A DNA stretch of 64,000 nt from Thermoplasmata archaeon (GTDB lineage: Archaea > Thermoplasmatota > Thermoplasmata > Lutacidiplasmatales > UBA184), in contig JBAUYF010000038.1 in assembly GCA_049584655.1 (NCBI GenBank), positions 5,524-69,523 of the forward strand, given 5' to 3'. A program made the position numbers and the translations under genes. Positions 10,290 through 59,534 of the stretch are shown here, piece by piece (the first letter of the stretch is position 1; every line of letters begins with the position of its first letter). The notes under the pieces were generated by a model. It was not told where the DNA came from. It ran no database searches and worked only from the letters and a program-made list of their open reading frames with translations.

Positions 10290-10326
10290 AATGATTATAT
10301 ATTCCTTAAATACTTTAAATAGGAAT
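10290..10326 (+). promoter_or_regulatory. AT-rich archaeal promoter with TATA-like boxes upstream of tbp
   Basis: ATTATATATT at 10294-10303 and TTTAAATAGG at 10315-10324 sit immediately upstream of the ATG at 10327. The spacing fits a leaderless or short-leader archaeal transcript. Confidence 0.5.
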
Positions 10327-13416: not shown

Positions 13417-13442
13417 TTAACTCCGCGCGCGTAGAATCTCGC

Positions 13443-30976: not shown

Positions 30977-30989
30977 CGCTGGCCCCTCT

Positions 30990-32863: not shown

Positions 32864-33017
32864 CCCAGTCCTCAGCGACCTTCGGGGCCGGCACCACCGA
32901 GAACGGTTGGCACGCCGTCACTTCGAGCTCGCTTCCGCAATCGGGGCAGGAGAAAATCTCTCCTTCGATCATATCCTTCGGCACTACAGGGGCCTCACAT
33001 TCCGGGCAGTTCGTCAT
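32856..33017 (-). CDS. lysW: Amino-group carrier protein LysW/ArgW (53 aa, zinc ribbon with acidic C-terminal EDWGE tail)
   Basis: MTNCPECEAPVVPKDMIEGEIFSCPDCGSELEVTACQPFSVVPAPKVAEDWGE. Two CxxC pairs plus the C-terminal ...DWGE typical of LysW. Its stop overlaps the lysX GTG start. Not in the ORF track (<60 aa). Confidence 0.8.
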   Translation of the reverse strand: MTNCPECEAPVVPKDMIEGEIFSCPDCGSELEVTACQPFSVVPAPKVAEDWGE

Positions 33018-33018
33018 T

Positions 33019-34407: not shown

Positions 34408-34426
34408 AGTGCCGTCGCCGCGGCGG

Positions 34427-43222: not shown

Positions 43223-43351
43223 CGCTGCGCGCTCCCTCTCGGACTGAACGTTGGCCCGAGTCCTCCTGCGATATGAGGTTTGACCGAACTTCGTCCTTGC
43301 AAGCAGCGCAATACGCTGACTCGAGAGGAAAACCTTCCCGGGCACCGCGAG

Positions 43352-45839: not shown

Positions 45840-47324
45840 TTAGGGTGCGTAGTTGACCGTGATCAACTTGACCTCGGTCATCTCTTCCATCGCATAGCGA
45901 ACGCCCTCGCGTCCGAGCCCGCTTTCCTTGATCCCCCCGAAGGGGAGAGCATCCCAGCGAAGGTTCGTGGGATCGTTCAAATGAACGGAACCCGCTCGGA
46001 TGCGTTTGGCGAGGCCGAAGGCGCGCTTCAAGTCGTTCGTGTAGACGGTCGCTTGGAGCCCGTACGGAGTTCCATTGGCGATCCGGATCGCCTCATCGTC
46101 GTCCCGGAACCGTAGAATCGGAGCGATCGGGCCGAACGGCTCCTCGCGGGCAACCTTCGCTTCGGGCGGAACTCGATCGATCACGGTGGGTGCGAAGAAG
46201 TTTCCCTCCCCAGGCTCACCGAGCCGCTCCCCGCCGGCAAGGATCGAGGCGTTGCGGTCGCGGGCATCCTGAACGAAACCATCGAGACGGTCGAGAGCGG
46301 CTTCGTCGATCAACGGACCGACCTGGGTGCTCTCTTCGAGCGCGGGGCCCACTTTGAGTCGGCGTACACCTTCGACCAACGCACGAGTGAACGGCTCCGC
46401 GATTCCATCTGCGACCAGCAACCGCTTGGACGCAGTGCAAACCTGACCTGAATATCCGAATACGCCACGGATGGCGGCCGGAACCACGGTCGCGAGGGGG
46501 GCGTCCTCGAGAATCAGAAAAGGGTCCATCCCCCCCATTTCGAGAATGGTTCGCTTCGCGTGGCGGCCGGCTTTCTCGGCGATCCCCTTTCCGACCTCGG
46601 TGGAACCGGTGAATGTCACGAGTCGGGTCTTCGGGTGCTCGACGAGGGCATCGCCAACCGAGCGCCCCGGCCCGATGACGACGTTGAGGACGCCCGCAGG
46701 AATGCCGGCGGCCTCCGCATGGTGCGCCAGCCGCAGGGCGGTGAAAGGTGCGGCGCTGGTGGGTTTGATGACCACCGGATTTCCCGCGGCGAGCGCGGGC
46801 GCCACCTTGTGAGTCAGCAGATTCAGCGGGAAGTTGAACGGACTGATCGCGACCACGACTCCGATCGGGTCCCGAGTGGTAAACAGAAAGCGCCGCTCGT
46901 TGCCGACGGGGTAAGGATACGCGTCCGCCGGGAAACTCTCCCCGGTCAAGTGTCGGATCTCCTCGGCGGCGAGCCGGAACACGCCAACGGCGCGCTCCAC
47001 CTCGGTCCGACTCTCGACGATCGGTTTGCCGACTTCGGAGGCGATCAGACGCGCCATGACCTCGGAGTCGGCAGCTAGTCGACCCGCGATTGCTTGCAAG
47101 AGCCGGGCTCGCTCATGCCCGCTGGTCGACCCCCAGCGATCTTCGACGCCGGCGGCCGCGTCGACCGCCGCTGCCGCGTCCGACGCATCGGCCAGCGCGA
47201 CCTCCCCGAGGATCTTCCCAGTCGACGGGTTCCGCAGCGGCTGATAGAGTCCCGTAGAGGGAGGCCGCCAGCTTCCCCCGATAAACAGGGAAGCCCGGCC
47301 ATCGGCCGGAATTCCTTCGAGCAT
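45840..47324 (-). CDS. NAD(P)+-dependent aldehyde dehydrogenase
   Basis: 494 aa. Catalytic Cys in GQVCTA and the ELGG motif. Confidence 0.9.
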   Translation of the reverse strand: MLEGIPADGRASLFIGGSWRPPSTGLYQPLRNPSTGKILGEVALADASDAAAAVDAAAGVEDRWGSTSGHERARLLQAIAGRLAADSEVMARLIASEVGKPIVESRTEVERAVGVFRLAAEEIRHLTGESFPADAYPYPVGNERRFLFTTRDPIGVVVAISPFNFPLNLLTHKVAPALAAGNPVVIKPTSAAPFTALRLAHHAEAAGIPAGVLNVVIGPGRSVGDALVEHPKTRLVTFTGSTEVGKGIAEKAGRHAKRTILEMGGMDPFLILEDAPLATVVPAAIRGVFGYSGQVCTASKRLLVADGIAEPFTRALVEGVRRLKVGPALEESTQVGPLIDEAALDRLDGFVQDARDRNASILAGGERLGEPGEGNFFAPTVIDRVPPEAKVAREEPFGPIAPILRFRDDDEAIRIANGTPYGLQATVYTNDLKRAFGLAKRIRAGSVHLNDPTNLRWDALPFGGIKESGLGREGVRYAMEEMTEVKLITVNYAP

Positions 47325-47339
47325 CGGCGTTGCGCCCCT

Positions 47340-48833
47340 CTACGATGGGTCGCCGTAGACCGTGTAGTGCCAACCTTTGCGGGCGAGCCCCGTTAGATCG
47401 ACGTAGATGTTCTTGACGACGGTGTAGTCCAATAGCGAATCGGTACCGAGGTCTTTGCCGAATCCGGATTGCTTGAATCCCCCGTGCGGCGTCTCGGAGC
47501 CGATCGGCAGGTGGTCGTTGATCCACACGTCACCGAAGCGCAGCGTATTGGCCGCTTTGAGGGCAGTCTGAACGTCCTTGGTCCAGACGCTCCCCGCCAG
47601 TCCATACTCCACCCCGTTCGCGATCTCCATCGCTTCATCGAACTTTTCGAACTCGATCACGTCGAGGACCGGCCCGAAGATCTCCTTCTGAGCGATCGCC
47701 ATATCCGGCGCCACCTCGTCGAAGACGGTCGGGGCGACGAAGGCCCCCTGCTTGCGCTTGGGTCCTCCGTCCGTTCCTCCCGTTTTGAGCTTCGCTCCCT
47801 CGCGTTTACCCGTGGTCACGAAGTCGAGCACTTTCTTCTGGTGGGTCTTGTGCACGAGCGGCCCGAGGTCGGTCTTACGGCTCATCGGATCTCCGATCCG
47901 GATCGTTTGAACGCGCTCCACCAAGTGCTTGACGAACTTGTCCCGGATCGAACGGTGCAGGATCAGTCGGGTGGCCGCCGTGCAATCCTGGCCCCCGTTC
48001 ACGTAACCTCCCACGATAGCCCCCTCGACTGCGGCGGCCAAGTCGGCCTCCGGAAAGACGACAAAGGGAGCCTTGCCGCCGAGCTCCAACTGAACGCGCT
48101 TTACGGTCTGGCTCGCGGCCTCCATGATCTTCTTGCCCGTCGCCGTGTCACCAGTCAACGACACCATGTCGACCTTGGGCGAGCGTGTGATCTCATCGCC
48201 AACTTCGCCGCCGGGTCCGGTCACGATGTTGAGGGCGCCGGGGGGTAGGCCCGCGTCGAGGAATGCCTTGCCCAGCTCGAGGGTCGAAAGCGGGGTCCAA
48301 CTCGCGGGCTTGAGCACGACGGTGTTGCCCGTCACAAGAGCGGGGCCCACCTTCCAGACGGCCATCATGAAGGGATAGTTCCAGGGCGTGATCGATCCCA
48401 CGACCCCGACCGGCTCTCGACGAAAGATCGTGGTGCCATCGCCGAGATATTCCGCGGGACTCTTCGCGTCCATCGTTCGGCCGGCCCCGGCGTAGAAAAT
48501 CAGATTGTCGATGGAACCGGGCAGGTCCACGTCCGCGGCTTGCTTGATCGTCTTGCCCTGATTCCGACTCTCGAGTTCCGCAATCGCAGCGAGGCGCTCT
48601 TGCAGCAATTGTGCGGTCTTGAGATAGACATCGCCGCGCGCCTTGGGCGTCATGCGCGGCCACGGACCGCGGTCGAACGCTTCGCGCGCCGCGTCGATCG
48701 CATTGCGGGCGTCCTCGCGATCGCCCAGAGGCACGGTCCCGATCTTACCGCCGTCGAACGGGCTGATCACGGACGAGGTCGCTTCGGAATTTGCCTCCAC
48801 CCATTCGCCTCGGATCAGCATCCGTGCCGCCAT
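47340..48833 (-). CDS. NAD(P)+-dependent aldehyde dehydrogenase (second, tandem)
   Basis: ELGGKAP and the CTAATR region. The start was moved to the ATG at 48833 (MAARMLIRGEW). The tracked ORF adds a 130-aa low-complexity extension that I reject. Confidence 0.85.
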   Translation of the reverse strand: MAARMLIRGEWVEANSEATSSVISPFDGGKIGTVPLGDREDARNAIDAAREAFDRGPWPRMTPKARGDVYLKTAQLLQERLAAIAELESRNQGKTIKQAADVDLPGSIDNLIFYAGAGRTMDAKSPAEYLGDGTTIFRREPVGVVGSITPWNYPFMMAVWKVGPALVTGNTVVLKPASWTPLSTLELGKAFLDAGLPPGALNIVTGPGGEVGDEITRSPKVDMVSLTGDTATGKKIMEAASQTVKRVQLELGGKAPFVVFPEADLAAAVEGAIVGGYVNGGQDCTAATRLILHRSIRDKFVKHLVERVQTIRIGDPMSRKTDLGPLVHKTHQKKVLDFVTTGKREGAKLKTGGTDGGPKRKQGAFVAPTVFDEVAPDMAIAQKEIFGPVLDVIEFEKFDEAMEIANGVEYGLAGSVWTKDVQTALKAANTLRFGDVWINDHLPIGSETPHGGFKQSGFGKDLGTDSLLDYTVVKNIYVDLTGLARKGWHYTVYGDPS

Positions 48834-48936
48834 GTTCGCACCCGGGTGAGCCGAGCCCGGGTGAGGTAAATATGTTGGCGATAGCCGACCGTCGGCCAAT
48901 GTGTCGTTGCCAACCGCGAGCCGGAGCGAGTGCGAC

Positions 48937-50109
48937 CTAAGCAACCGCGGCGGAGGTGCTTCCCTCGGCCGGAATCGGAGCCTTTTCGGGCTCGGGACCT
49001 TGCGCGAAGAGGGTCTCGGGCGCGATATCCGCGACTTCTTCTGCGCGGTGGCACGCAACGAGCGTAGAGGGATCGCCTGGACGAGGGCGGAGGAGGGGCT
49101 CCTCTGTCTTGCATCGGTCGATCGCGAACGGGCATCGAGCCGTGAATCGACATCCCGGGGGAGGGCGAACCAGCGTGGGAATCTCTCCGGTGATCCGGTA
49201 GCGGGCGTGACGACGGCGCACATCAGCGACCGGAAGGGCGGCGAGGAGCGCCTTGGTGTAGGGATGGGTGGGATGTTCGAGCAGCTGGTGGACCGGTCCG
49301 ACCTCGACGATCTTTCCTAGATACATCACCGCGACCCGATCGGCCACATAGCGCACGGCGGCGACGTTGTGGGTAATCAGTAGGTAGGCGAACCCGAACT
49401 CGCGCTGTAAGGTTACGAGGCGATTGAGGATCTGCGCTTGGACGGCGACATCCAGGGCGCTCGTCGGCTCGTCCAACACGATGAGCTTAGGTCGAACGGA
49501 GAGGGCGCGGGCCAGCGAAAGGCGTTGGCGACCGCCGCCCGAAAACTCGTGCGGGTACTGATCGAGGCAGTCCGGGGGTAGTCCGACCGTGGGCAAGACC
49601 TCCGATACGCGCGCACGGAGCTGACGCCGGGATAGGCGAGACCTCTTCGGCGGGCGTTCCGCCTTATGCCCGGACGAGCCCAACCGCTGTTTCATGCGCG
49701 CGGTCCAAGAGGGACGCGCCAGCTGCTCCTGCGCCCGGATCGGTTCGCTCACGATCTGCCAAACCTTGAGCCGTGGGTCGAGGGAGCCGACCGGATCCTG
49801 GAAAACGATCTGGACATTTCGTCGCCACTCGCGCAGCTTCCGACCGGAGAGCTCGCTCACGTCCCGCCCATCAAACAGAATCTCGCCGTCCGTGAGGTCG
49901 TGAAGTCGCGCGATCAGCCAGCCGAGGGTGGTTTTGCCCGAGCCGCTCTCCCCGATCAGTCCCACTGTCTCGCCGGCCTCGACCGTCAAAGAAACGTCAT
50001 CCAGTGCATGGATGGCCAGCGACTCCCGCCCCATGGCCGCATCAATAACCGATCGGGAGAGGGGAAAGTGCTTCACCGCATGTTTGACCTCGACCAGCGG
50101 TGGGCTCAT
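48937..50109 (-). CDS. Peptide/nickel-type ABC transporter ATP-binding protein (OppF/DppF-like)
   Basis: Walker A GESGSGKTT, signature FSGGGRQRL (LSGGQ) and Walker B LIVLDEPTSALD. It has the C-terminal oligopeptide-transporter domain. ATGA overlap with the upstream ATPase gene. Confidence 0.85.
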   Translation of the reverse strand: MSPPLVEVKHAVKHFPLSRSVIDAAMGRESLAIHALDDVSLTVEAGETVGLIGESGSGKTTLGWLIARLHDLTDGEILFDGRDVSELSGRKLREWRRNVQIVFQDPVGSLDPRLKVWQIVSEPIRAQEQLARPSWTARMKQRLGSSGHKAERPPKRSRLSRRQLRARVSEVLPTVGLPPDCLDQYPHEFSGGGRQRLSLARALSVRPKLIVLDEPTSALDVAVQAQILNRLVTLQREFGFAYLLITHNVAAVRYVADRVAVMYLGKIVEVGPVHQLLEHPTHPYTKALLAALPVADVRRRHARYRITGEIPTLVRPPPGCRFTARCPFAIDRCKTEEPLLRPRPGDPSTLVACHRAEEVADIAPETLFAQGPEPEKAPIPAEGSTSAAVA

Positions 50110-51320
50110 AGCTCCGGGACCCCCTCCGCAAAGTAGCACGCCGAGGCGTGCGTGCTGCCCGCCGGACGCCGGCGAAGGGGCTCCATCGGCGGACCTGGAT
50201 CCACCTTACACTTTTCCCGAGCCAGGACGCACCGAGGGGCGAAGTTGCACCCCGTCGGAAGTCGCGAGAGATTCGGAACCGTTCCCGCAAGGGAAGGGAG
50301 CGGGCCGTCTGACTTGTACCGGTTCGGGACCGACCGGAGTAGCGCCTTCGTGTAGGGGTGACCCGGGCTCTCGAACACCTCCGCGACAGGGCCGAATTCG
50401 ACGAGATGGCCGGCGTACATGACGCCGACATCGTCCGCGATCTCGGCGATCACGCCCAAGTCGTGGCTAATGAAGAGGATCGAAGTGTGGACCTCGTCGA
50501 TCAGTTCTTTCATCAACGTGAGCACTTGCGCCTGGATGGTCACGTCCAGCGCGCTGGTTGGCTCGTCGGCGACGAGGAGCTCGGGTTTTTCGGAAAGGGC
50601 CATCGCAATCATGATGCGCTGTCGCATCCCGCCCGACAGCTCGTGCGGATACAGCCGAAGGATCGTCTCGGGGTCGTTGATCCGGACCAACCGAAGATAT
50701 TCGAGCACTTCCTCCTTGATGCTCTCGGGCGGATCGGGGATCGTACGTCGTTTGGCGCCCTCGCTCGTGGCCGCTGCCGGTAGGAACGGATGGGCGAGGA
50801 TCTCCCCGGTAGGTGGGAGTTGCCTTCGCGAGTAATCGAATGCCTTGAGCTCAGGCCCGAGGTCAGGCATATTGCCGGCTTCCCGTCGGCGCCGGACTCG
50901 GACCGCCTCGGCCACTTGGTCGAGGATGCGGTAGGCCGGATTCAGCGAGTTCGTGGGCTCCTGGAAGATCATCCCGATTCCGGTACCCCGGACGTAGGGC
51001 ACCTTCCATTTGGGGATCGACAACAGGTCGACACCGCGAAACTCGATCTTGCCCGACAAGGTCTTCGCGGGCGGTTCGGGCAATAGACGCGGGATGGAGT
51101 GGCCGAGCGTGCTCTTTCCGCATCCGGTTTCCCCGACGATCCCAACCACTCGGCCGGGCGGGACTTCGAAGGAAACGTTGTCGAGCGCGCGAAACGTACC
51201 GGAACCGACCGTATACTGAACCGAGAGGCCCTCGACGCGCAGCGCCAGCTCGCTCCCGGGCCGGTCCGAAAGGAAGGAGGCCTGGGGAAGATCCGGCGCG
51301 GAAGCCGCCGGTGATTGCAC
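50106..51320 (-). CDS. Peptide/nickel-type ABC transporter ATP-binding protein (OppD/DppD-like)
   Basis: Walker A GETGCGKST, signature LSGGMRQRI and Walker B LLVADEPTSALD. Confidence 0.85.
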   Translation of the reverse strand: MQSPAASAPDLPQASFLSDRPGSELALRVEGLSVQYTVGSGTFRALDNVSFEVPPGRVVGIVGETGCGKSTLGHSIPRLLPEPPAKTLSGKIEFRGVDLLSIPKWKVPYVRGTGIGMIFQEPTNSLNPAYRILDQVAEAVRVRRRREAGNMPDLGPELKAFDYSRRQLPPTGEILAHPFLPAAATSEGAKRRTIPDPPESIKEEVLEYLRLVRINDPETILRLYPHELSGGMRQRIMIAMALSEKPELLVADEPTSALDVTIQAQVLTLMKELIDEVHTSILFISHDLGVIAEIADDVGVMYAGHLVEFGPVAEVFESPGHPYTKALLRSVPNRYKSDGPLPSLAGTVPNLSRLPTGCNFAPRCVLAREKCKVDPGPPMEPLRRRPAGSTHASACYFAEGVPEL

Positions 51321-51400
51321 GCCGCATTGAACGGTCCGCCCTACTAATAAGTGCCGAAATCGAGCATGGAGGCCCCCCGAGGCTCAGGAGCCCCGGAGCG

Positions 51401-53146
51401 TCAGGGAAGGTAGTCGCGGGGGAGGGTGCGAAGCTCAGTGAACACTTCGTGGAGGATGCCGATGAACTGCTCGACGTCCTTCTCCGTATGCGCGGTCGAG
51501 AACGTGATCCGCTCGTAGTTATCGGGATGGATGTACACCCCTCGATCGAGCAAGAGCTGGTGATTGCGCAGGAACAGATTCCAGTCGATTTGCAGCGATT
51601 CGCGGTAGTTGGAGATCTTTTTCCGACGCGTGAAGAAGAACTGGAGCATGCCGTTCACGGACTGGACCAGCACCGAGATTTTCGCATCCCGACCGGCGGA
51701 CTCGATCCCCCTCTCCATCTGTGTGGTCAATCGCCCGAACCGCTCGTAGAGCTCGTCTCCTCCACGCGCGAGGATCTTGAGATTCGCGAGGGCCACCGCC
51801 AGCGAGAGATTGTTCGCGAAGTAGGTGCCTCCGAAGGAGATACGGCCTGGAGAGATCGAGTCCATGTACTCGGCTTTACCGGAAACCGCAGAGATCGTGA
51901 CGCCCCCTCCCAAGGCTTTGGCCCAGCACGACAGGTCCGGTTGGACCTTGTAGAGCTGCTGTGCCCCTCCGGGAGCTACGCGGAATCCGGTGAACACTTC
52001 ATCGAAGATCAGCAAGAGTTCGTTCTCGTGCGCGATCTCTCGAAGTCGTTTCAAGTAATCCGGCGCGGGCGCAATGACGCCGGCGTTGGCCATGATCGGC
52101 TCCAGGATGACAGCGGCCAGCCGGTCCCGGTACCGTTTGACCATACGCTCGAACGCTGGGATCGAATTGTACGGAGCGACCATGACGTAGTCCGTCACCC
52201 CGGGGGGAATCCCCGCCGAGTTCGGAAGCGGACGCGGATACTCGTCCAGCCCGGCCACGATCGGCGGCGCCTCCGCGCTAATCAGGGCATAGTCGTGTTG
52301 TCCGTGGTAGTGACCTTCGAACTTGAGAATCGCATCTTTCCCAGTGACGGCCCGCGAGATGCGGATCGCATTCATCGTCGCGTCCGAGCCGTTCGAGCAG
52401 AAGGCGACCCGCTCCGAGTTGGGAACCAGCTTGTGGAACATCTTCGCGACTTCGATCTCGAGTTCGGTCGGCGCCGCAAAATGGAGTCCGAGCTCCGCGG
52501 CATGCTCGACCGCCTTGACCATCTCGGGGTGGGCATGCCCGTTGATAAGGCAGCCGTAAGCGAGATTGAAATCGAGGTACTCGTTGTCGTCGACATCCCA
52601 GATTCGAGCGCCCTTACCCCGCGCGATGAACGGGGGAACTGGGTCGTAGGAAGCCACTCGAATGAGCGAGCTCGAGGAGTTCGGAATGTACTTCTTGCCT
52701 TCCTCGAAGAGCTTCGCACTCTTCTTGAGTTTCGGTACCAGCCGTGCGATCGGGATGGGAAGCGGGATCACCTCCTCTTCGGCCGATTCCTTGGCTTCCT
52801 TCGCCTCTTTTGACTCCTTGGCTTCCTTGGAATCACGCGCCTCCTTAGCCTCCTTAGCCTCCTTGGCCTCGGTAGCGTCCTTCGATTCCTTGGAATCCCG
52901 TGGCTCCTTCTCTTTCTCCTTCTCTCTCTCTTTCTCTTTCTCTGACTCGCGCTTGTCGCGTTCCTCTGACGCGGGCGAGCGCGTGGTCGGGACGATCGCT
53001 ACCGAGGAGCTATCGGTTTTCTTGACCGCGCTGCCCTCGGCACTCAAACGGTCGGGGAAGGGAGAATCCGGGTAGGTTGAGGTCGGAGGTACCTCCAAAC
53101 CGAGCCTCGTCGGCCGATCCGGAGGGGCGGCGTCTCTCTCCGCCAT
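51401..53146 (-). CDS. Class III aminotransferase of the glutamate-1-semialdehyde aminomutase (HemL)-like subfamily with an approximately 120-aa K/E-rich N-terminal extension
   Basis: The core (...KLFEEGKKYIPNSSSSLIRVASYDPVPPFIARGKGARIWDVDDNEYLDF...GHYHGQ...PLP-Lys) matches GSA-AM-like transaminases. There is no ATG between the repeat region and the conserved core. The extension is in frame and free of stops. Confidence 0.7.
   Translation of the reverse strand: MAERDAAPPDRPTRLGLEVPPTSTYPDSPFPDRLSAEGSAVKKTDSSSVAIVPTTRSPASEERDKRESEKEKEREKEKEKEPRDSKESKDATEAKEAKEAKEARDSKEAKESKEAKEAKESAEEEVIPLPIPIARLVPKLKKSAKLFEEGKKYIPNSSSSLIRVASYDPVPPFIARGKGARIWDVDDNEYLDFNLAYGCLINGHAHPEMVKAVEHAAELGLHFAAPTELEIEVAKMFHKLVPNSERVAFCSNGSDATMNAIRISRAVTGKDAILKFEGHYHGQHDYALISAEAPPIVAGLDEYPRPLPNSAGIPPGVTDYVMVAPYNSIPAFERMVKRYRDRLAAVILEPIMANAGVIAPAPDYLKRLREIAHENELLLIFDEVFTGFRVAPGGAQQLYKVQPDLSCWAKALGGGVTISAVSGKAEYMDSISPGRISFGGTYFANNLSLAVALANLKILARGGDELYERFGRLTTQMERGIESAGRDAKISVLVQSVNGMLQFFFTRRKKISNYRESLQIDWNLFLRNHQLLLDRGVYIHPDNYERITFSTAHTEKDVEQFIGILHEVFTELRTLPRDYLP
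52795..52970 (-). repeat. Tandem low-complexity repeat (CTCCTT/AGCCTCCTT units on the plus strand), encoding KEKEREKEKEKE...EAKEAKEAKEARDSKEAKESKEAKEAKE
   Basis: Short purine-rich units are visibly repeated on the coding strand. Both strands stay open across the repeat. Confidence 0.6.
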
Positions 53147-53429
53147 AAAAACATAATCCTAAGTGGTTCGGGCAGCCGGAACGGCCTATATATATTTGGC
53201 GTGAGGGGAGAATGCGATTTTGTTCTCATATATAGTACACCAACGCGCAATCATTCGTAAGTAAATCGCGATATTTTCAGCATTATTGCCTACTAAAGCA
53301 CTAAAATATACCCAAAAGAACCCAAAACTGGCTGTCTACCTGACGGCTCTGCGCCGACTTCGCAGCGGAAGGTGACGCAACCGACGGCTCCCGCGGGGGG
53401 AGTCTGCGAGGTCGTCCCATAGGAGCTTC
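53147..53429. promoter_or_regulatory. AT-rich island (about 280 bp) inside an otherwise GC-rich operon, with multiple TATA-like boxes
   Basis: CCTATATATATTTGG (53185-53199), CTCATATATAGTAC (53227-53240), GCGATATTTT and GCGATTTTGT motifs, and CTAAAATATACCC. No ORF. Lies between the cupin gene and the hemL-like gene. Confidence 0.5.
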
Positions 53430-53762
53430 TTAGTCGCTAACTTGCTCCGCGGGCGCGAAGAAGACCAGGAGACGAAGTTCCTCCTCGATGGAGTGAAAAT
53501 GGTGCTCCCGGTGAGCTGGGACGTATAGGACCGAACCCATCGTCACAGCGCTATCCTCCGCGCCACATCGGAACCGGCCGCGGCCGGCGAGGACGTAATA
53601 GACCTCGTCCTCCGCGTGCGGGGATTGGGAGTCCGTCACCCCCGCGGGAAGTCGATAGACTCCCGCGCTCAACGTAGGAACCCGCAAGAATTCGAAGTAC
53701 CGATCCCGTTTTTGGTGCTGCGCATCGAACAGCTGGTGCAAGTCCCACCGCTCTGCCGTCAT
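53430..53762 (-). CDS. Cupin domain protein (111 aa)
   Basis: ...PHAEDEVYYVLAGRGRFRCGAED...GSVLYVPAHREHHFHS is a cupin two-motif signature. The ATG at 53762 was chosen. The tracked ORF extends into the amine oxidase gene. Confidence 0.6.
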   Translation of the reverse strand: MTAERWDLHQLFDAQHQKRDRYFEFLRVPTLSAGVYRLPAGVTDSQSPHAEDEVYYVLAGRGRFRCGAEDSAVTMGSVLYVPAHREHHFHSIEEELRLLVFFAPAEQVSD

Positions 53763-53818
53763 GGGGCGCCGATGCACCGTAGGGGGATGACTCCTTGGCC
53801 CGTCGCTTTCCCTTCGAA

Positions 53819-55177
53819 TTATTGGGCCGAGGAGGATTTGTTCGGGAAAGCCCGCAAAGCCTCCTCGGCAGCTCGATATCCAGTCTCGATCGCCCCATGC
53901 ACGGTGCTGGCTGCTCCGCTGGAATGCGTGGCTTCTCCGGCAAAGAAAACACGGCCGTCTTCGGGCACGGATAGATCTCGTCGGTCCTGGAGTCCCACCC
54001 CCGGGGGAAGATACGAGTAAGCCCCCACGGCAAATGGGTCGAAGGGCCACCGGTGGACGGCCGTCCCGAGGGCGGGACCCACGCGGCTCCCCGCGGGAAG
54101 GATCGACTCCAATTCCGCAATCGTCGCTTCCAATAGAGGGCTGTCTTCCCACGAGGCCCTGCGACGCGCCTCCCGGCCCACGGTGAAGGCCGTGTAGACC
54201 TCTTGGGCCTCGCCGAGCCCGACGCGGGGGCGCAGGAACGAGGAAGCGCCGTCCCCCCAGATCATCGAGAAGTCGCCCCATCGGTCCCGAAGCGGGTGGT
54301 CAGCAGTCCAGAAATGGACCGCGATAGCGTCGCCCATCGCGATCCGGTCGATCGCGCGCCGCTTCACCTCAGAGAGCGGCGGATCAAACGCGATCATTCC
54401 CGCTCGTAAGACTCCCAACGGCACAGTCACGATCACCGCGGTCGCGCCCAACTCGAAGGACTGCCCATCGGTCGGTCGCTCCCACCGTACGCGGATCGTC
54501 GGCTCCCGAAAATCGATGCGCCGCACGACCGCCCCGGTCTGGATCCATGGGCGAAGCGAATCGGCACGTCGGCGCATCAACTCGGAGTACCCTTCGCGCA
54601 ACTGGAAGTTCGTAAAGCCAAACTTCTCCGAGGCCGCGCGCTCCTCTTCAAGGGGTCCTCGCACTCCGATAGCGTCCGCATCCGCGGCGTACACATGGGC
54701 GAACATCAGGTCGACCAAAGATCGCGCGGCCACTCCCGTGCGGGCCTCAGTGAGCCAACTGGCCAGCGGCAGATCGGTCCCTGCGTACGCGTCCAGTCGG
54801 CGAGGAATGAGGATGCCACCCTCGAGGGTTGCCCGCGTGCCGAACACTGGATGGAAGGGGAACGCCATCCACGGCATTCGGGCAACCCTCCGACCGACGG
54901 CAAACCGGCCTTTCTGCATCAAGGGCAGCGGGCGCACCGAGAGGCCCGTCTCCTGAATCCAGGCGTGGGTCGCCACAGATCGGCCGTGCACCATCTGGGC
55001 TCCCAATTCGAGCGGGCACGACGGGCCACGGGAGTAATCCGTGAAGGCGCGCCCGCCGATCCGGTCGCGACCTTCGAGCACGCGAATACTCCGGCCCGCA
55101 CGCAACAGCCGCTCGGCGGCGGCAATCCCCGCGGCGCCGGCCCCGACGACGATCACGTCGTAGCGAAGTCGGTTCAT
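53819..55177 (-). CDS. Flavin-containing amine oxidase (polyamine/putrescine/monoamine oxidase family)
   Basis: N-terminal dinucleotide fold YDVIVVGAGAAGIAAAERLLRAGRSIRVLEGRDRIGGRA. 452 aa. ATGA overlap with the upstream permease gene. Confidence 0.85.
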   Translation of the reverse strand: MNRLRYDVIVVGAGAAGIAAAERLLRAGRSIRVLEGRDRIGGRAFTDYSRGPSCPLELGAQMVHGRSVATHAWIQETGLSVRPLPLMQKGRFAVGRRVARMPWMAFPFHPVFGTRATLEGGILIPRRLDAYAGTDLPLASWLTEARTGVAARSLVDLMFAHVYAADADAIGVRGPLEEERAASEKFGFTNFQLREGYSELMRRRADSLRPWIQTGAVVRRIDFREPTIRVRWERPTDGQSFELGATAVIVTVPLGVLRAGMIAFDPPLSEVKRRAIDRIAMGDAIAVHFWTADHPLRDRWGDFSMIWGDGASSFLRPRVGLGEAQEVYTAFTVGREARRRASWEDSPLLEATIAELESILPAGSRVGPALGTAVHRWPFDPFAVGAYSYLPPGVGLQDRRDLSVPEDGRVFFAGEATHSSGAASTVHGAIETGYRAAEEALRAFPNKSSSAQ

Positions 55178-56340
55178 TCCGGCGCAACATTTGGGATTGG
55201 CGTCGCAGGGGCTTCTTCCGGCAGCCGAGTATCAGTATCTGCGGCTGACAAAGCCCGTCGCGTCCGCGGGTCGAGCACGTCCCGCAACCCGTCGCCGAGG
55301 AGGCTGAAGGCGAGCACGCTGATGAAAATCGCGAGCCCGGGAGCCGCGATCGTCCAGGGGTACGTCAGGAGAAAACCGGCCGTCTGGTAGTACTGTACCA
55401 TCGACCCCCACTCGGGAACGGACGAGTTCGGGCCCACGCCGACGAACGAGATTGTCGAGAACGTGACGAGGACCGAGCCGATATCCAGGGTAAAGTACAC
55501 GACGATCGGCTCGACGATATTTCGGAGCACGTGCCGGGTCAGGATCCGCGTGTCACTGACGCCGGCGGCACGCGCCGCGACCACGTAGGGTTGGTACTTG
55601 ATCGCCAGGACCTCCCCGCGGACGAGCCGAACGTAGTACGGCCACCACGTCAGGAGGAGCGAAAGATAGCCGGCGCCTAGGCCCCGCCCGAAGATCGCTG
55701 CCAGCGCCAGCGCCAGTACGAGGCTCGGGAACGCGAGAAACACATCCGTAACGCGCAAGATGGTCGCGGAAAGGATGCGGCGCCAAGGGCCGGGTGAATC
55801 CCAGTATCCCGAGACCAAGCCTAATCCGCCACCGATCAACAGCGAGATTCCCGTAATCGAGATCCCGATCCCGAGGTCGAGCGGGGCCGCGTAGAGCGTC
55901 CGCGAGAAGATGTCGCGCCCGAGATTATCAGTCCCGAACCAGTGCTGCCAGGAGGGCGGCTGCGGGGCGGTCGTGGGGCTGATCTGGTTCGGCCCGTAGG
56001 GCAGGACCGAATACGACATCCGGAAGAGCTGCGGGAAGGCGACGGTATGACCGAAAAGGTGGAAGAGGACGATTGGTTGGGCAAAGAACCCCGTAAACGT
56101 CGGGACGACCCAGATGATGAATGCGCCGCCGGTGATGAGGACGACGAGAATGAACCCGACGAGCGACAGCACGTTGGCCCGGAGCACTTGGATGAGGCGG
56201 ACGACGCCTCGATACGCGCGATAGGACGTCGATCGGCGGGACCAACGCCGGGTAGGTGGAACTGGAGACGATTCCGCCGGCACCGGACTCGCAGCCTCAG
56301 ATTCCGAAATGGTGGGCGTGGGCGCGGAGTCGTCGCTCAT
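55174..56340 (-). CDS. Peptide/nickel-type ABC transporter permease (OppC/DppC-like)
   Basis: 388 aa with 6 TM helices and a BPD-transporter EAA-like loop. It directly follows the oppB-like gene with no gap. Confidence 0.85.
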   Translation of the reverse strand: MSDDSAPTPTISESEAASPVPAESSPVPPTRRWSRRSTSYRAYRGVVRLIQVLRANVLSLVGFILVVLITGGAFIIWVVPTFTGFFAQPIVLFHLFGHTVAFPQLFRMSYSVLPYGPNQISPTTAPQPPSWQHWFGTDNLGRDIFSRTLYAAPLDLGIGISITGISLLIGGGLGLVSGYWDSPGPWRRILSATILRVTDVFLAFPSLVLALALAAIFGRGLGAGYLSLLLTWWPYYVRLVRGEVLAIKYQPYVVAARAAGVSDTRILTRHVLRNIVEPIVVYFTLDIGSVLVTFSTISFVGVGPNSSVPEWGSMVQYYQTAGFLLTYPWTIAAPGLAIFISVLAFSLLGDGLRDVLDPRTRRALSAADTDTRLPEEAPATPIPNVAPE

Positions 56341-57363
56341 CTAGCGCCAATCCACCCGGGGATCGATGATCCCGTAGAGTATGTCGGCGATCAGATTCGC
56401 GACGACGACCGAAATGGAAAATACGATGACCACGCCAATGGTGCCGGCGAAATTGTAGTTGATGATCGCGTTGTAGGCATATTGACCGATCCCCGGCCAC
56501 GAGAAGATCTCCTCGACGACCACGGTCCCTGATAGCAGTCCGCTCGCGGTGAAACCGAGCACGGTTGTCGTGGTGATCAGCGAGTTTCGGAGGGCGTGTT
56601 TGAACAGCACGACCTCCTGCGAGAGGCCTTTCATCTTCGCGCTCTTCACGTACTCGAGCGGGAGGACCTCGAGCATCGAGGCGCGCGTCATGCGCGTGAT
56701 GATTCCGAGGTTCAGGAAGGCCAAGGCCGTCGCGGGGAGGATCAGATGTGTGATCGCATCCAAGGTGTACGGCAGGTTTCCCGCAAGGAGCGCGTCGAGG
56801 ACCGACATATGGGTCGGTTGAGGGAACGGAGGCGGATTGGTGGTGAAATCGCCGCTCGTCGGCAGCCCTAAAAACGGACCCACGGCGATCGCGAGTACGA
56901 TCGCCGCCAAATAGGTGGGCGCGGCCCAACCACTGAGGTAGAAGATGCGCACGAGGTGGTCGGGCCAGCGCCCCGCATAGTGCGCGGCCACCACCCCGAG
57001 TGTGATACCGAAAACGATCATCAGGAACAATGAAGCGAGAACGAGCTCGACCGTTTCGGGAAGCGCCTGAGCGATCGCGGGGAGGACGGGCCCCGTCCCG
57101 TTCGGGTCGACCCCCCAGTTTCCGCCGACGAGCTGAACGAGATACTTGTAAAACTGGACGTCGATCGGTTGATTCAAGCCGAAATAATTTCGACACGCGG
57201 CGAGCGCGTCGGGTTTCGCCCGTGGGATCCAGCGAGTGCAGGGGTCCGAAACTCCGATGTGGATGAAGATGAACGTGATCAGAATGGCCCCGATCACGAC
57301 GGGAATGAGCTCCGCGAACCGGATCGCGATAAAGACGGCCAGGTCGCGGAGGCTCCGTCCCAT
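56341..57363 (-). CDS. Peptide/nickel-type ABC transporter permease (OppB/DppB-like)
   Basis: 340 aa. Begins MGRSLRDLAVFIAIRFAELIPVVIGAILITFIFIH..., the typical OppB N-terminus. Confidence 0.85.
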   Translation of the reverse strand: MGRSLRDLAVFIAIRFAELIPVVIGAILITFIFIHIGVSDPCTRWIPRAKPDALAACRNYFGLNQPIDVQFYKYLVQLVGGNWGVDPNGTGPVLPAIAQALPETVELVLASLFLMIVFGITLGVVAAHYAGRWPDHLVRIFYLSGWAAPTYLAAIVLAIAVGPFLGLPTSGDFTTNPPPFPQPTHMSVLDALLAGNLPYTLDAITHLILPATALAFLNLGIITRMTRASMLEVLPLEYVKSAKMKGLSQEVVLFKHALRNSLITTTTVLGFTASGLLSGTVVVEEIFSWPGIGQYAYNAIINYNFAGTIGVVIVFSISVVVANLIADILYGIIDPRVDWR

Positions 57364-57500
57364 GAGGACCTACTCGACCTCCGAAGGAGGGGGGTCGGGG
57401 TTGGAGGACCCTACGGACCAACGCACGAGGCCCTCGCACCGCCGCCGTGGTAATAAATGCCGCGGCGAGGTACGCTTTCGACAGCCAATCGACTAACGCA

Positions 57501-57956
57501 TCATGGCGCCGGCGGGGGAGGTGGTGGCGGCTCCGACAGATGTTTCGTGAGCGAACTCGCGAACGCTTCCGCATCGCCCTGTACCCGACGCTTGAGGTAG
57601 CCGTCGATCACGACACGCAGGGGGCCGGCGCCCATCATGTCCAGCTTTAGTGTGAGGGCGGTCGTCTCGGTACTTTGGGGCACTAAATCGATCTGTCCCT
57701 CGATGGTCGCATCCGCCCCTCGCGCCGCGAACCGAACCCGACTCTCCGTAGCTTCGAGTAGTTCCCCTTGAAATTCGGTCCGACGGGTGAGCGGCCCAAG
57801 CCTGATCTCGACGAGCCAGGTGGCTGTGGTCGCGGTCTTCGGTACGACCCCTACGACCTGCGGAATGTTCGAGGCCAGGAACCTGGGATCCTTCAGTAGA
57901 TCCACGATCCGGCTCGGCGCCGCCGGCAGGGTGAACGTGATTGTGGAGGTGGGCAT
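57501..57956 (-). CDS. SRPBCC family protein (CoxG / polyketide-cyclase-like ligand-binding fold)
   Basis: 151 aa with a CoxG-like pattern. Poly-Pro C-terminal tail. Confidence 0.55.
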   Translation of the reverse strand: MPTSTITFTLPAAPSRIVDLLKDPRFLASNIPQVVGVVPKTATTATWLVEIRLGPLTRRTEFQGELLEATESRVRFAARGADATIEGQIDLVPQSTETTALTLKLDMMGAGPLRVVIDGYLKRRVQGDAEAFASSLTKHLSEPPPPPPPAP

Positions 57957-57971
57957 CCGATTGGTTCCTCG

Positions 57972-59534
57972 CTAGTTAGGGAGCGTTCGCGAAGGTCCGC
58001 GCCGGTCTTCCAAGATCACGTGAGCGGCGTTGTGACCCGGGGCGCCGATCACTCCTCCTCCGGGATGTGTAGCCGAACCGCACATGTAGAGACCAGGGAC
58101 TGGTGTTCGATAATTGGCCCAACCCGGAATAGGGCGCATGGAAAAGATCTGGTCGGGCGTAATGTCACCCTGATCGATGTTTCCGCCGGGCATGCCAAGA
58201 ATCCGCTCGATATCCGACGGCGTGACGACCTGCCAATGGCGGACGAGGGCTCGGATCCCGGGCGCATACCCTTCGAGAGTCGCAAGCACCGTCTCGGCCA
58301 CGGACTCGCGGGCATCGTCCCAGGTAAGCCCCGCCAACTGCGTTGGAGCAAATTGGACGAAGCAGGTCATCGTGTGCTTGCCGGGTGGGGCGGTGCCCGG
58401 GTCAGCCAGGCTCTGGAAGTACAGGTCGATGTACGGGGCGCGCGAGAAACGACCGTACTTCGCGTCGTCGTACGCGCGCTCGATGTATTCCATTGAGGGA
58501 GCGATATCGATCGCGCCCATCAGATACCCCGAGTTAGGAGCCGCCTCGAATCGAGGTAGCTTATCGAGCGCCGCATTGAACTTGAGACACGCCCCGCGCG
58601 CTTTCACGCGTCGGACTCGAGCCTCCAGGGTTTTATCGAGCGTATCCGGCGGGAGAAGTTTGAGCAGGGTCGTTTGAGTGTCCACGGAGGACACGACGAG
58701 ATCGGCCCGATGTACCGCGCCCTGCTCCGTCTCGACTCCGGTGGCTCGGCCGTTCGCGAGCAGTATTCGGCGCACGGCGGCGCCAGTCACGATCTCCGCC
58801 CCATGCTGTTGCGCCGAAGTGGCGATCGCCTGGGTGATGGCACCCATCCCGCCCGTCATTTGCCCCCAAACGCGTCGGTGACCTTCGATCGTGCCGATAT
58901 TGTGATGGCCGAGGATGTAGGCCGTTCCTGGCGTATACGGTCCGGCAAAAGTTCCGATAACGGCGGACGAGGAGAGAGCGCCCTTGAGTTCCGGAGACTC
59001 GAACCAGTCATCCAGGAAATCCCGCGCGCTTTTCAGGAAAAGATCCCGCAACATCGGTTCGGCTTCCCCGGGTGGGAGTGTTTGGAAGAAATCGGCGATC
59101 GGCATGGGCGGCGCCATCATGGCCGGTTCGATCACATCGAGAACGTGATCCCAGTACTCGACGTACTTGGGATAGACGCGGGCGTCCTTTTCCGAGAATT
59201 TCGCGATCTCCTTCTGCTCCTTCTCGTCATCGATCCAAAAGGCAAGGTACCGGCCGTCGGGCTGCGGGGCAAATCCCTGGGGATCGGACAGAATCGGTTG
59301 ATATCCATACCGCGTGAGCGCGAGATCCTGAATGATCTGAGGTCGGAGTAACCCACTGGCATACGCGAACGTGTTGATCCGGTATCCGGGCCACGGTTCT
59401 TCTGTGACGCACGCCCCTCCCACGATATCCCGGCGCTCGAGCACGAGCACGTGGAGTCCGGCTTTGGCTAGGTAGGCCGCGTTGATCAAACCGTTATGGC
59501 CGGCTCCGATCACGATGGCGTCGTAGTCGGCCAT
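57972..59534 (-). CDS. FAD/NAD(P)-dependent oxidoreductase of the phytoene-desaturase-related (CrtI-like, COG1233) family
   Basis: MADYDAIVIGAGHNGLINAAYLAKAGLHVLVLERRDIVGGACVTEE. 520 aa. Confidence 0.8.
   Translation of the reverse strand: MADYDAIVIGAGHNGLINAAYLAKAGLHVLVLERRDIVGGACVTEEPWPGYRINTFAYASGLLRPQIIQDLALTRYGYQPILSDPQGFAPQPDGRYLAFWIDDEKEQKEIAKFSEKDARVYPKYVEYWDHVLDVIEPAMMAPPMPIADFFQTLPPGEAEPMLRDLFLKSARDFLDDWFESPELKGALSSSAVIGTFAGPYTPGTAYILGHHNIGTIEGHRRVWGQMTGGMGAITQAIATSAQQHGAEIVTGAAVRRILLANGRATGVETEQGAVHRADLVVSSVDTQTTLLKLLPPDTLDKTLEARVRRVKARGACLKFNAALDKLPRFEAAPNSGYLMGAIDIAPSMEYIERAYDDAKYGRFSRAPYIDLYFQSLADPGTAPPGKHTMTCFVQFAPTQLAGLTWDDARESVAETVLATLEGYAPGIRALVRHWQVVTPSDIERILGMPGGNIDQGDITPDQIFSMRPIPGWANYRTPVPGLYMCGSATHPGGGVIGAPGHNAAHVILEDRRGPSRTLPN

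Follow-up and report, generated by a model that had tools for sequence, protein, structure and literature searches.

ATP-binding cassette (ABC) importers of the Opp/Dpp/Nik group (PepT, TC 3.A.1.5) are built from a substrate-binding protein (SBP) of the SBP_bac_5 family, two BPD_transp_1 permeases and two oligo_HPY ATPases, and their genes canonically follow the order oppABCDF. The SBPs of this group classically bind peptides, nickel or metallophores, or sugars, and not small amines; small polyamines normally enter through PotD/F-type binding proteins, and betaines through ProX/OpuA-type or BCCT transporters. Bacterial putrescine catabolism relies on a putrescine oxidase (PuO) or PatA, a gamma-aminobutyraldehyde dehydrogenase (ABALDH; YdcW or KauB), the gamma-aminobutyrate (GABA) aminotransferase (GABA-AT) GabT and the succinate-semialdehyde dehydrogenase (SSADH) GabD, while quaternary amines are the domain of the group V Rieske oxygenases, either of type Va (CntA, choline monooxygenase, OxyBAC) or of type Vb (GbcA/BmoA, Stc2). 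Substrate-specific catabolic clusters that include an ABC importer of their own are common. Here we describe a gene island on a 64,000-nt stretch of contig JBAUYF010000038.1 from a Thermoplasmata archaeon (the whole stretch is called the window below), in which an Opp-type importer is combined with a flavin amine oxidase, a cupin, Rieske oxygenases, aldehyde dehydrogenases (ALDHs) and aminotransferases. All its protein families are known; what is new is an oxidase gene fixed between the Opp permease and ATPase genes, the company of group V Rieske and polyamine-type enzymes, the archaeal host, and the lack of any characterised counterpart. The island is a real, conserved and uncharacterised pathway, and we consider it likely, from its gene content, that it serves the catabolism of one or more N-alkylated amines, taken up by the Opp importer and processed by C-N-cleaving and oxidising enzymes.

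Gene families were assigned from a listing of open reading frames (ORFs) together with Pfam and NCBIfam profile searches, and gene junctions were read in the sequence. The initial annotation of the window had described, between 45840 and 59534, a minus-strand string of eleven genes (CrtI-like oxidoreductase, CoxG-like protein, oppB, oppC, flavin amine oxidase, cupin, HemL-like aminotransferase, oppD, oppF and two ALDHs) with a class-III aminotransferase gene converging on its end. All eleven were found in that order, and the aminotransferase gene does converge on the string, its stop codon lying 23 nt from that of ALDH2. The limits drawn for the cluster proved too narrow: the 14-kb stretch is the core of a larger conserved island of ~27 kb and 21 genes, which runs past both ends of the string, from 43352 to ~69746 in window numbering, of which the final ~5.7 kb fall outside the window. 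The initial annotation had missed further aminotransferases, a second CrtI-like flavoenzyme, two genes resembling carboxyspermidine dehydrogenase (CASDH) and both group V Rieske oxygenases. On an identical contig, the SBP gene at the window end is followed, in the same direction, by a gene for a carboxyspermidine/saccharopine dehydrogenase-like (SacDH-like) protein and, on the opposite strand, by a class-III aminotransferase, the second CrtI-like oxidoreductase and a second SacDH-like gene, after which unrelated genes begin. The source is archaeal: a TBP gene is present within the window (10276-10950), and a protein identical to the oxidase is deposited at NCBI as Thermoplasmata archaeon. The same contig was seen again in soil and peat assemblies (samples SRR28012030, SRR28061326 and JGI 3300079534) and in GCA_049280115.1; its host, a member of the Thermoplasmata from soil or peat, is aerobic and has not been cultured.

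We looked for relatives of the island among GTDB representatives and in metagenome contigs. Three other lineages (L004, L007 and L005, the last the same as L008) keep all 17 genes in the same order, with oxidases 82%, 83% and 67% identical to that of the window, respectively, and with neighbouring genes at 86-98% identity. In ten distant loci (L010, L013, L016, L035-L039, L041 and L042, of which L010, L013 and L016 represent GTDB species), the order CrtI-like-SRPBCC-oppB-oppC-oxidase-cupin-oppD-oppF is kept as far as the contigs reach, at 52-57% identity for the oxidase and 67-76% for OppB, and the SacDH-like, SBP, Rieske B and Rieske A genes stand upstream wherever these contigs extend enough. 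Two further contigs carry only the upstream half (L040) or only oppB (L034). The core order was recovered, as far as each contig reaches, in three GTDB species and in eight contigs from metagenomes (L035-L042). The gene order on which the initial annotation had staked its proposal is thus conserved, completely in three lineages and as a core in the distant loci, and because it recurs in other lineages the arrangement is not a product of chance. On the 1-Mb contig of L005 (CAVVLX010000007.1), neither oppC nor the HemL-like gene is intact (locus positions 8821-10004 and 12036-13762); both are broken into two ORFs, owing either to frameshift mutations or to assembly indel errors.

The most constant feature is the junction between transporter and enzyme genes. 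The ATGA stop/start overlaps reported between oppC and the oxidase gene and between oppD and oppF are both present (GGAATGAACC and GCTATGAGCC, respectively). In all 12 of the 12 Thermoplasmata loci that reach the first of these junctions, oxidase start and oppC stop overlap or are no more than 13 nt apart, and the cupin gene follows 3' of the oxidase in L004, L005, L007, L010, L012, L013, L015, L016, L020, L037 and L042. Since every relative shows this overlap or close spacing, oxidase and cupin are predicted to be co-transcribed with the permeases and probably co-translated with them. Retention of the junction in 12/12 loci further indicates that the oxidase-cupin insertion is ancestral to this group and, as judged from its conservation, under selection. 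The presence of catabolic genes between the permease and the ATPase genes, as pointed out in the initial annotation, therefore stands for the oxidase-cupin pair, whose position is kept in relatives. Two loci without Opp genes, L012 and L020, keep a block of oxidase-cupin, aminotransferase, methyltransferase-like ORF, ALDH, aminotransferase, amidohydrolase, GabT-like aminotransferase (69-70% identity) and ALDH2 (71-74%), which in L012 includes Rieske B too; the methyltransferase domain was checked with Pfam in L020 only. Because these loci keep the block without the Opp genes, the oxidase appears to be functionally tied to the downstream enzymes. An oxidase homologue stands alone in about ten other loci.

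Several observations touch these genes. Oxidase and cupin evolve much faster than their neighbours: relative to L004, L007 and L005, protein identity is 82%, 83% and 67% for the oxidase and 79%, 80% and 64% for the cupin, compared with 88-98% for OppB, OppC, OppD, OppF and both ALDHs and 78-94% for the other cluster genes, which suggests either that their specificity is diversifying or that recombination has replaced the cassette. The methyltransferase-like ORF of L020 (3295-4110) encodes a class-I S-adenosylmethionine-dependent methyltransferase inside the enzyme block and is absent from the lineage of the window; an ORF of L016 (16132-16971) has an N-terminus like that of the L020 methyltransferase.

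The island encodes one complete Opp/Dpp-family importer, consisting of a membrane-anchored SBP, OppB, OppC, OppD and OppF, with the same set of domains as its described counterparts. In identity matrices, all four permease and ATPase subunits group with the same relatives from loci of this arrangement (type I; 57-75% identity) and are uniformly more distant from a paralogous system (type II) of the same archaeal group. This rules out a chimera of two Opp systems, and the possibility raised initially, that the ABC genes are two separate disrupted systems, fails. The SBP gene, which was not among the genes listed in the initial annotation, exists; it encodes a protein of 648 aa with an N-terminal membrane anchor and is syntenic in each type I locus that reaches far enough upstream. 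A search of the PDB with this SBP gave no more than 49 bits, to HbpA, NikA, GsiB, AgaA and MbnE, so that its ligand class is not readable from the solved members of the family. Relative to the canonical oppABCDF order, the SBP gene is displaced by 2.7 kb and lies on the other strand, and the amine oxidase, the cupin and, in this lineage, an aminotransferase stand between the C and D genes, whereas the paralogous locus keeps the canonical B-C-D-F order. The proteins also depart from canonical Opp subunits by insertions in the ABC domains of OppD and OppF and by a long N-terminal extension of OppC. The best NCBIfam matches of OppC are NikC, Opp2C and Opp4C, each below cut-off, and oppF begins at 50109 rather than at 50139, where the longer ORF opens. 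The insertions in OppD and OppF measure ~40-70 aa, and the ABC_tran profile of Pfam, 137 positions long, matches over 211 and 182 residues, respectively; the OppC extension (~100 aa) is rich in Ser, Pro and Ala.

Table 1. Features of the island within the window (positions of the 64,000-nt stretch)
Feature	Position	Strand	Evidence and remarks
Amidohydrolase_2 (PF04909), 293 aa	43352-44233	-	Pfam 114 bits; left edge of conserved island
Class-III (omega) aminotransferase, GabT/OAT/DABA-AT group	44296-45816	+	PF00202 343 bits
ALDH2, SSADH/GAPN/lactaldehyde-DH group	45840-47324	-	PF00171 539 bits
ALDH1, aminoaldehyde/betaine-aldehyde dehydrogenase type	47340-48830	-	NF010000 575 bits (cut-off 615)
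oppF-type ATPase	48937-50109	-	ABC_tran + oligo_HPY; 390 aa
oppD-type ATPase	50106-51320	-	ABC_tran + oligo_HPY; 404 aa
GSAM(HemL)-like class-III aminotransferase	51401-53146	-	NF000818 409 bits (cut-off 398)
Conserved non-coding gap, 283 nt	53147-53429	-	hairpin, T-tracts, three TATA-like boxes
Small single-domain cupin	53430-53765	-	Cupin_2 41.8 bits
Flavin amine oxidase, cytoplasmic	53819-55177	-	PF01593 193 bits, residues 16-440, full-length
oppC-type permease	55174-56340	-	BPD_transp_1 98 bits; ~100-aa N-terminal extension
oppB-type permease	56341-57363	-	BPD_transp_1 132 bits + BPD_transp_1_N
SRPBCC-fold protein	57501-57956	-	Polyketide_cyc2 30.7 bits
CrtI-family NAD(P)/FAD oxidoreductase	57972-59534	-	Pfam best Amino_oxidase 54.8 bits
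Rieske oxygenase A, group V, Vb-like	59687-60856	+	Rieske + Ring_hydroxyl_A; motif QNANECYHCPGVHPQL
Rieske oxygenase B, group V, Va-like	60889-62055	-	CntA 6y8j 161 bits, then Stc2 (PDB); motif ENFSECYHCAPIHPEL
SBP_bac_5 (PF00496) substrate-binding protein	62228-64000, gene end ~64174 past window	+	six-frame read; PF00496 on identical contigs L001, L026/L027

The string had been proposed to form a single translationally coupled operon of about 14 kb. Its gaps, listed from the CrtI-like gene to ALDH2, are 15, 137, 0, -4, 53, 283, 80, -4, 106 and 15 nt, which leaves two overlaps and one abutment (oppB/oppC, TAGATG), and TATA-like boxes are found in the gaps of 137, 283, 80 and 106 nt. In each gap of at least 80 nt, a run of A and T only is found 25-90 nt ahead of the following start codon; such runs include ATTTATTA, TTATTA, ATATTTA and AAATATATATA, and similar runs precede the CrtI-like gene and both Rieske genes. 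The promoter-like stretches are conserved at 81-98% between lineages, equal to or above coding DNA. The 80-nt gap ahead of oppD contains TTATTA, and its 41 gene-proximal nt match L004 at 97.6% identity. Because these promoter-like gaps are conserved and the HemL-like gene has a promoter of its own, the string is not one translationally coupled operon. It is probably divided into CrtI-like-SRPBCC, oppB-oppC-oxidase-cupin, the HemL-like gene (possibly with oppD-oppF), oppD-oppF, and ALDH1-ALDH2. Promoters are predicted near 59560, 57455, 53190, 51347 and 48870.

The largest of these gaps, an AT-rich interval pointed out in the initial annotation, is real. It contains first a hairpin (CCGCTGCGAAGGCGG) and T-tracts, which likely act as the terminator of the upstream unit, and then the three TATA-like boxes, which likely belong to the promoter of the HemL-like gene. 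Its identity to L004, L007 and L005 is 91%, 91% and 80%, compared with 69-81% for the oxidase coding sequence. No Rfam family was detected in the gap by an E-value scan and no covariation by an alignment fold; a riboswitch or small RNA is therefore unsupported, and a promoter/operator is more likely.

The HemL-like gene downstream of this gap has a history of its own. The protein, which resembles glutamate-1-semialdehyde aminomutase (GSAM), passes only the broad subfamily model NF000818; it scores 406 bits with TIGR00713 (hemL), below the equivalog cut-off of 527, and up to 298 bits with GSAM structures in the PDB. The context of the gene is always an Opp or SacDH amine cluster, not a haem pathway. 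It is absent from the position between cupin and oppD in all distant type I loci, and its closest relatives (78-88% identity) are found directly upstream of the type II genes oppB'C'D'F'. The orthologue in L044 shares the promoter layout (CCAATTATATATAGCC, ~27 nt, TTTATGGCGGAG), the MAE start and a KE/P-rich extension of ~110-140 aa (L044 7242-7560). In the window, this N-terminal extension covers ~140 aa (52727-53146) and contains repeats such as EAKEAKE. Since its indels are multiples of three, the extension must be translated; the idea that the KE-rich region is untranslated filler is ruled out by the kept ATG and reading frame, by these indels and by the orthologue at another locus. Taken at the level of gene distribution and promoter layout, the HemL-like gene is a lineage-specific transplant that would have come with its own promoter from the paralogous type II Opp locus, the likely donor. 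The extension itself is disordered and carries a short conserved motif, RL[ST]AEGSA.

The type II locus, combined from the metagenome contigs L043-L046, comprises a SacDH-like gene, a GSAM-like aminotransferase gene and oppB'C'D'F' in canonical order. Its SacDH-like gene was seen in L044 only, where genes for a true GlnA and an Amidohydro_3 protein are found upstream. A gamma-glutamylation (PuuA-type) route at this locus was discarded, as the adjoining glutamine synthetase passes the true GlnA equivalog model (531 vs 429 bits).

We turn to the enzymes themselves. The amine oxidase has the N-terminal GxGxxG FAD site and the two-domain fold of its family, and its AlphaFold2 model (pLDDT 93.3) superposes on LSD2, maize polyamine oxidase (PAO), PuO and the monoamine oxidases (MAOs) alike, with Foldseek TM values of 0.78-0.84 at 20-25% identity. 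It thus shares the full-length PF01593 domain with LSD1/LSD2, PAO, PuO and MAO, and differs from LSD1/LSD2 in having neither SWIRM nor tower domains, and from characterised amine oxidases in its constant association with a small cupin and its coupling to a permease gene. The best phmmer matches are LSD2 (92 bits), NicA2-type enzymes (72), PAOX (67), PAO (65) and MAO-B (63), and PuO is not within the top 60. With scores of 60-92 bits and equal fold similarity to all, the placement among the PuO, PAO or MAO clades envisaged at the outset favours none of them; judged from sequence and model, the enzyme forms a separate clade, the specificity of which is not readable from either.

The downstream enzymes are more informative about class than about substrate. 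ALDH1 scores 494 bits with the betaine-aldehyde dehydrogenase (BADH) model and 439 bits with TIGR03374 (cut-off 909), and its PDB matches at ~380-400 bits are BADHs, YdcW (1wnb) and ABALDH (6c43). ALDH2 matches 8hap (400 bits) and GabD (3jz4, 353 bits) and does not reach the cut-off of the SSADH model TIGR01780 (397 vs 646 bits). The convergent aminotransferase is closest to the GABA-AT family in the PDB (7vno, 3oks and 1sf2, ~250 bits); it scores 292 bits with the GabT model TIGR00700 (cut-off 507), all its NCBIfam matches being below cut-off, and its orthologues (69-72% identity) are linked to ALDH2 in L012, L013 and L020. The distal aminotransferase beyond the window is likewise similar to GABA-AT and ornithine aminotransferase (OAT). 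The amidohydrolase is syntenic in L004, L005, L007, L012, L013 and L020, and the only relative found for it in a PDB search is the uncharacterised protein 3irs. The enzyme set had been read as fitting an amine-to-succinate route. This part of the proposal holds at the level of enzyme class, with a BADH/ABALDH-like ALDH1, an SSADH/GAPN-like ALDH2 and a GABA-AT-like aminotransferase, but no protein passes a PuO, ABALDH, GabT or GabD equivalog cut-off.

Upstream of the importer genes, the CrtI-like protein reaches the cut-off of neither crtI_fam (125 vs 238 bits) nor CrtO (330 vs 1000 bits). At E <= 1e-8, its only PDB matches are CrtI (4dgk, 65 bits), the oxidoreductase 3ka7 (54 bits) and a gamma-carotene desaturase (4rep, 47 bits), and no carotenoid genes were found near it. 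By these thresholds it is not a carotenoid enzyme; it is a probable amine (N-alkyl) oxidoreductase. The SRPBCC gene lies always downstream of the CrtI-like gene and is syntenic in all type I loci; the protein had been named CoxG-like, of which the SRPBCC fold remains, the COXG score (20.6 bits) being under its cut-off.

In group V Rieske oxygenases, a bridging Glu and a Cys-x-x-Cys pair accompany the mononuclear iron (E205-C206-x-H208-C209-xxx-H213 in CntA), and the pi-cation position CntA-Y203 is aromatic in type Va and lacks an aromatic residue in type Vb (PMC7948474, PMC10952381). Both Rieske proteins of the island carry CxH-x(15-20)-CxxH and the group V signature (NECYHCPGVH in A, SECYHCAPIH in B), with the same bridging Glu and Cys pair as the known members. 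The Y203 position is Ala in Rieske A, as in the demethylase type (Vb-like), and Phe in Rieske B (Va-like). The motif positions are invariant in the seven loci searched (L004, L005, L007, L010, L012, L013 and L016), the Rieske B motif varying only by Ile/Val in the xxx stretch (AP[IV]HP) and in the residue after HP. GbcA (NF058607) is the top NCBIfam model for both, at 198 bits for A and 218 bits for B, against a cut-off of 670. Relative to the described group V enzymes, the host is archaeal and similarity is remote (161 bits to CntA, 198-218 bits to the GbcA model). Unlike known group V genes, the two paralogues are convergent, with stops 32 nt apart, beside an Opp importer, and no reductase of the kind that accompanies CntA or GbcA (CntB/GbcB) adjoins them.

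The two SacDH-like proteins have five PDB matches (4ina, 4rl6, 8deb, 8h4z and 3ic5), and the closest solved family is that of carboxyspermidine dehydrogenase (8deb, 126 bits; 4ina, 135 bits). The fungal saccharopine reductase structures, 1e5q and 2axq, are absent from these matches. The pair scores 121 and 57 bits with NF043000, whose cut-off is 800.

A related set of enzymes was found on alphaproteobacterial megaplasmids, which carry homologues of the CrtI-like protein at 43% identity. In Fuscovulum ytuae (NZ_CP124537.1, 111801-126258; L028), a GSAM-like aminotransferase, two CrtI-like proteins, a GcvT-like aminomethyltransferase and two Rieske alpha subunits are followed by a PotD/F-type ABC importer, a cupin and an amidohydrolase. 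Identity to the window proteins is 36% for the GSAM-like protein, 43% and 33% for the CrtI-like proteins and 30-34% for the Rieske proteins, one of which has the motif ENYSECLHC. The cupin of this cluster is of the 'DMSP-lyase family'. Megaplasmids of Rhizobium sp. SL42 and Shinella zoogloeoides (L029, L031) carry variants or subsets of it. The megaplasmid cluster and the island thus share a GSAM-like aminotransferase, CrtI-like and two Rieske proteins, a cupin and an amidohydrolase beside an ABC importer. They differ in that the megaplasmids have a PotD/F-type importer and a GcvT-like protein where the island has an Opp-type importer, and no PF01593 oxidase of this clade, ALDH or CASDH-like gene was seen in the megaplasmid cluster. 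Since a related enzyme set is coupled there to another importer family, the comparison argues for a pathway that would act on a small nitrogenous solute, and by analogy the GcvT-like partner points to N-demethylation. When plasmids were searched by tblastn with the oxidase or with a SacDH-like protein, only isolated genes at 30-33% identity in unrelated contexts were obtained. In the literature searched, we found no publication characterising either the archaeal island or the megaplasmid cluster.

Taken together, these assignments are compatible with a stepwise degradation. An N-alkylated amine would be imported by the Opp system. The Rieske pair would then act at a quaternary nitrogen, the Va-like enzyme by C-N cleavage or hydroxylation and the Vb-like enzyme by N-demethylation, while the amine oxidase, the CrtI-like and the CASDH/SacDH-like enzymes would attack secondary or tertiary nitrogen. 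ALDH1 may oxidise the aminoaldehydes or betaine aldehydes so formed, the class-III aminotransferases may transaminate the omega-amino acids, and ALDH2 may convert the semialdehydes to dicarboxylates, for example succinate. The most likely substrates are a polyamine-like or an N-methylated/quaternary omega-amino compound, or a conjugate of one that is big enough for an Opp-type SBP. We prefer this general reading, amine catabolism with a dedicated importer, because the two more specific routes discussed below, from betaines and from putrescine, each leave conserved genes unexplained.

A number of points weigh against it. No enzyme of the island reaches an equivalog cut-off, and the specificities derive from remote homology (20-45% identity). 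The SBP is without an informative relative, its best score being 49 bits, in a family that does not classically serve small amines. The genes called in L026/L027 and those of the island within the window include no FNR/ferredoxin-type reductase partner, although one could be encoded elsewhere in the genome, and neither a GcvT-like protein nor a regulator was seen in the island. The cupin, the SRPBCC protein and the amidohydrolase are left without an assigned role. The CASDH-like genes and an aminotransferase similar to diaminobutyrate aminotransferase (DABA-AT) could in principle be biosynthetic, and the putative promoters were called from A/T motifs and conservation.

It is possible, although we lean against it, that the island degrades a quaternary amine in the narrow sense: choline, betaine aldehyde, glycine betaine, gamma-butyrobetaine, carnitine or a trimethylated amino acid. 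In that case, cleavage or hydroxylation beside a trimethylammonium group would fall to the Va-like Rieske enzyme, ALDH1 would be a betaine-aldehyde or trimethylaminobutyraldehyde dehydrogenase, the Vb-like Rieske enzyme and the flavoenzymes (amine oxidase, CrtI-like) would strip methyl groups one after another, and the omega-amino acid set free would pass through the GabT-like aminotransferase and ALDH2. This agrees with the group V motifs, conserved in orthologues of both Rieske proteins, with CntA, Stc2 and GbcA as their best matches, and with BADHs as the top PDB matches of ALDH1. The top sequence and fold matches of the oxidase are the N-methyl-lysine demethylases LSD2 and LSD1, and the bacterial CrtI-like homologues adjoin a GcvT-like aminomethyltransferase, which is typical of N-demethylation. 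Soil Thermoplasmata ('Ca. Angelarchaeales') were moreover found to be enriched in KEGG orthologues (KOs) for betB and gbcA and in peptide transporters (PMC9038741). However, the Rieske scores remain far from the GbcA cut-off (198-218 vs 670 bits), neither a reductase partner nor a gene handling one-carbon units or formaldehyde was found in the archaeal island, and two CASDH-like proteins and three or four aminotransferases are not needed for the catabolism of glycine betaine. The LSD likeness of the oxidase is, at the level of fold, no stronger than that to PAO, PuO and MAO. Finally, the importer is of the Opp type and not one of the ProX/OpuA or BCCT systems expected for betaines.

Rather unlikely, in our estimate, is the route first proposed for the locus, in which a simple di- or polyamine (putrescine, spermidine or cadaverine) would, after import, be converted through an aminoaldehyde, GABA and succinate semialdehyde to succinate, with the amine oxidase, ALDH1, the GabT-like aminotransferase and ALDH2 acting in turn as products of one coupled operon. 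The four enzyme classes of bacterial putrescine catabolism are all in the neighbourhood: ALDH1 comes near the NF010000 cut-off (575 vs 615 bits) with YdcW and ABALDH among its top PDB matches, GABA-AT-type aminotransferases are present, and ALDH2 is SSADH-like. The CASDH-like neighbours are polyamine-type enzymes, the bacterial analogue has a PotD/F-type SBP, and three or four aminotransferases with two ALDHs is the number that spermidine fragments need. Against this, the oxidase is not PuO-like in particular and forms its own clade, the GabT, GabD and ABALDH equivalog cut-offs are unmet, and the importer is Opp-type instead of PotFGHI-type, where small polyamines normally depend on PotD/F-type SBPs. 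Compared with the bacterial pathway, the island has extra genes for group V Rieske, CrtI-like, CASDH-like, SRPBCC, cupin and amidohydrolase proteins; the putrescine route covers five genes and leaves two group V Rieske, the CrtI-like, the SRPBCC and the SacDH-like proteins unexplained. As a single operon, it is contradicted by the conserved promoter-like gaps and the transplanted HemL-like gene. What survives of the putrescine-to-succinate module is therefore the enzyme logic, which supports amine catabolism, the specific route being one option among several.

A bolder version of the preferred amine-catabolic reading, which we regard as speculative and on balance improbable, would be a previously undescribed archaeal pathway for amines that bear both quaternary or N-methyl groups and polyamine-type secondary amines. 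It would use a recruited Opp SBP, with the oxidase made in fixed ratio with the permease and perhaps docked to it; N-methylated or branched polyamines and small conjugates bearing trimethyl-lysine or trimethyl-ornithine would be candidates, equally speculative. If true, this would be the first Opp-type amine/betaine importer and the first functional context for archaeal group V Rieske oxygenases.

Ordinary oligopeptide import is still harder to reconcile with the island, and we think it quite unlikely that the enzymes degrade Lys, Orn or Arg by a saccharopine-like route, with the Rieske proteins and the oxidase handling methylated lysine. Membership of the Opp/Dpp family, the saccharopine-dehydrogenase Pfam domains, NCBIfam matches of the aminotransferases to OAT and acetylornithine aminotransferase, the LSD-like top matches of the oxidase, and a prolyl-oligopeptidase and arginine-biosynthesis genes elsewhere in the window could be cited in its favour; yet the SacDH-like proteins match structures of the bacterial carboxyspermidine-dehydrogenase type, the island contains no peptidase and no lysine-ketoglutarate reductase of the alanine dehydrogenase (AlaDH) type, and the SBP is remote from the peptide-binding OppA and DppA. 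Very improbable is the synthesis of an opine-type metallophore or unusual polyamine retrieved by a Nik/Cnt-like Opp importer, to which the Nik, Opp2 and staphylopine Cnt subunits among the best NCBIfam matches of permeases and ATPases, the biosynthetic role of CASDH-like enzymes in bacteria and the DABA-AT-like scores of the convergent aminotransferase might point, since the Nik and Cnt scores fall well short of their cut-offs, the island contains neither a nicotianamine-synthase-like gene nor a carboxyspermidine decarboxylase or an exporter, and two ALDHs, an amine oxidase of the H2O2-forming type and C-N-cleaving Rieske proteins are catabolic hallmarks.

Several genes in the remainder of the window are unrelated to the island. 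They comprise an arginine-biosynthesis string (argG, argH, argC, argB, an argD-like gene and an M20 deacylase; 27998-35659), a group II PLP decarboxylase, a protein with an adenylate/guanylate-cyclase domain, and a PHO4 phosphate transporter with a PhoU-domain protein; the coordinates listed with these genes are 27998-35659, 23704-25149, 21617-22726 and 40032-42190. Directly downstream of the amidohydrolase, a minus-strand ORF of 347 aa (42302-43345) has as sole match, below threshold, the mycobacterial-type methylenetetrahydrofolate reductase family (PF19345, 20.9 bits), and it was not found in distant syntenic loci. Scans of the window for tRNA genes and Rfam families returned nothing.

The Thermoplasmata of soil and peat are abundant, have not been cultured, and are assigned substrates mostly by guesswork from KO lists; the island provides a concrete and conserved catabolic unit that can be tested. 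It is a case of an Opp-family importer turned to a new use, one of its permease genes being tightly joined to an enzyme gene, and it extends the quaternary-amine (group V) Rieske oxygenases to the Archaea. It also connects with the enzyme set of the alphaproteobacterial megaplasmids, no better characterised, whose culturable hosts could serve as a tractable model for solving the chemistry. N-alkylated amines form a pool of organic nitrogen in soil, and the island suggests that they are imported and mineralised by these archaea.

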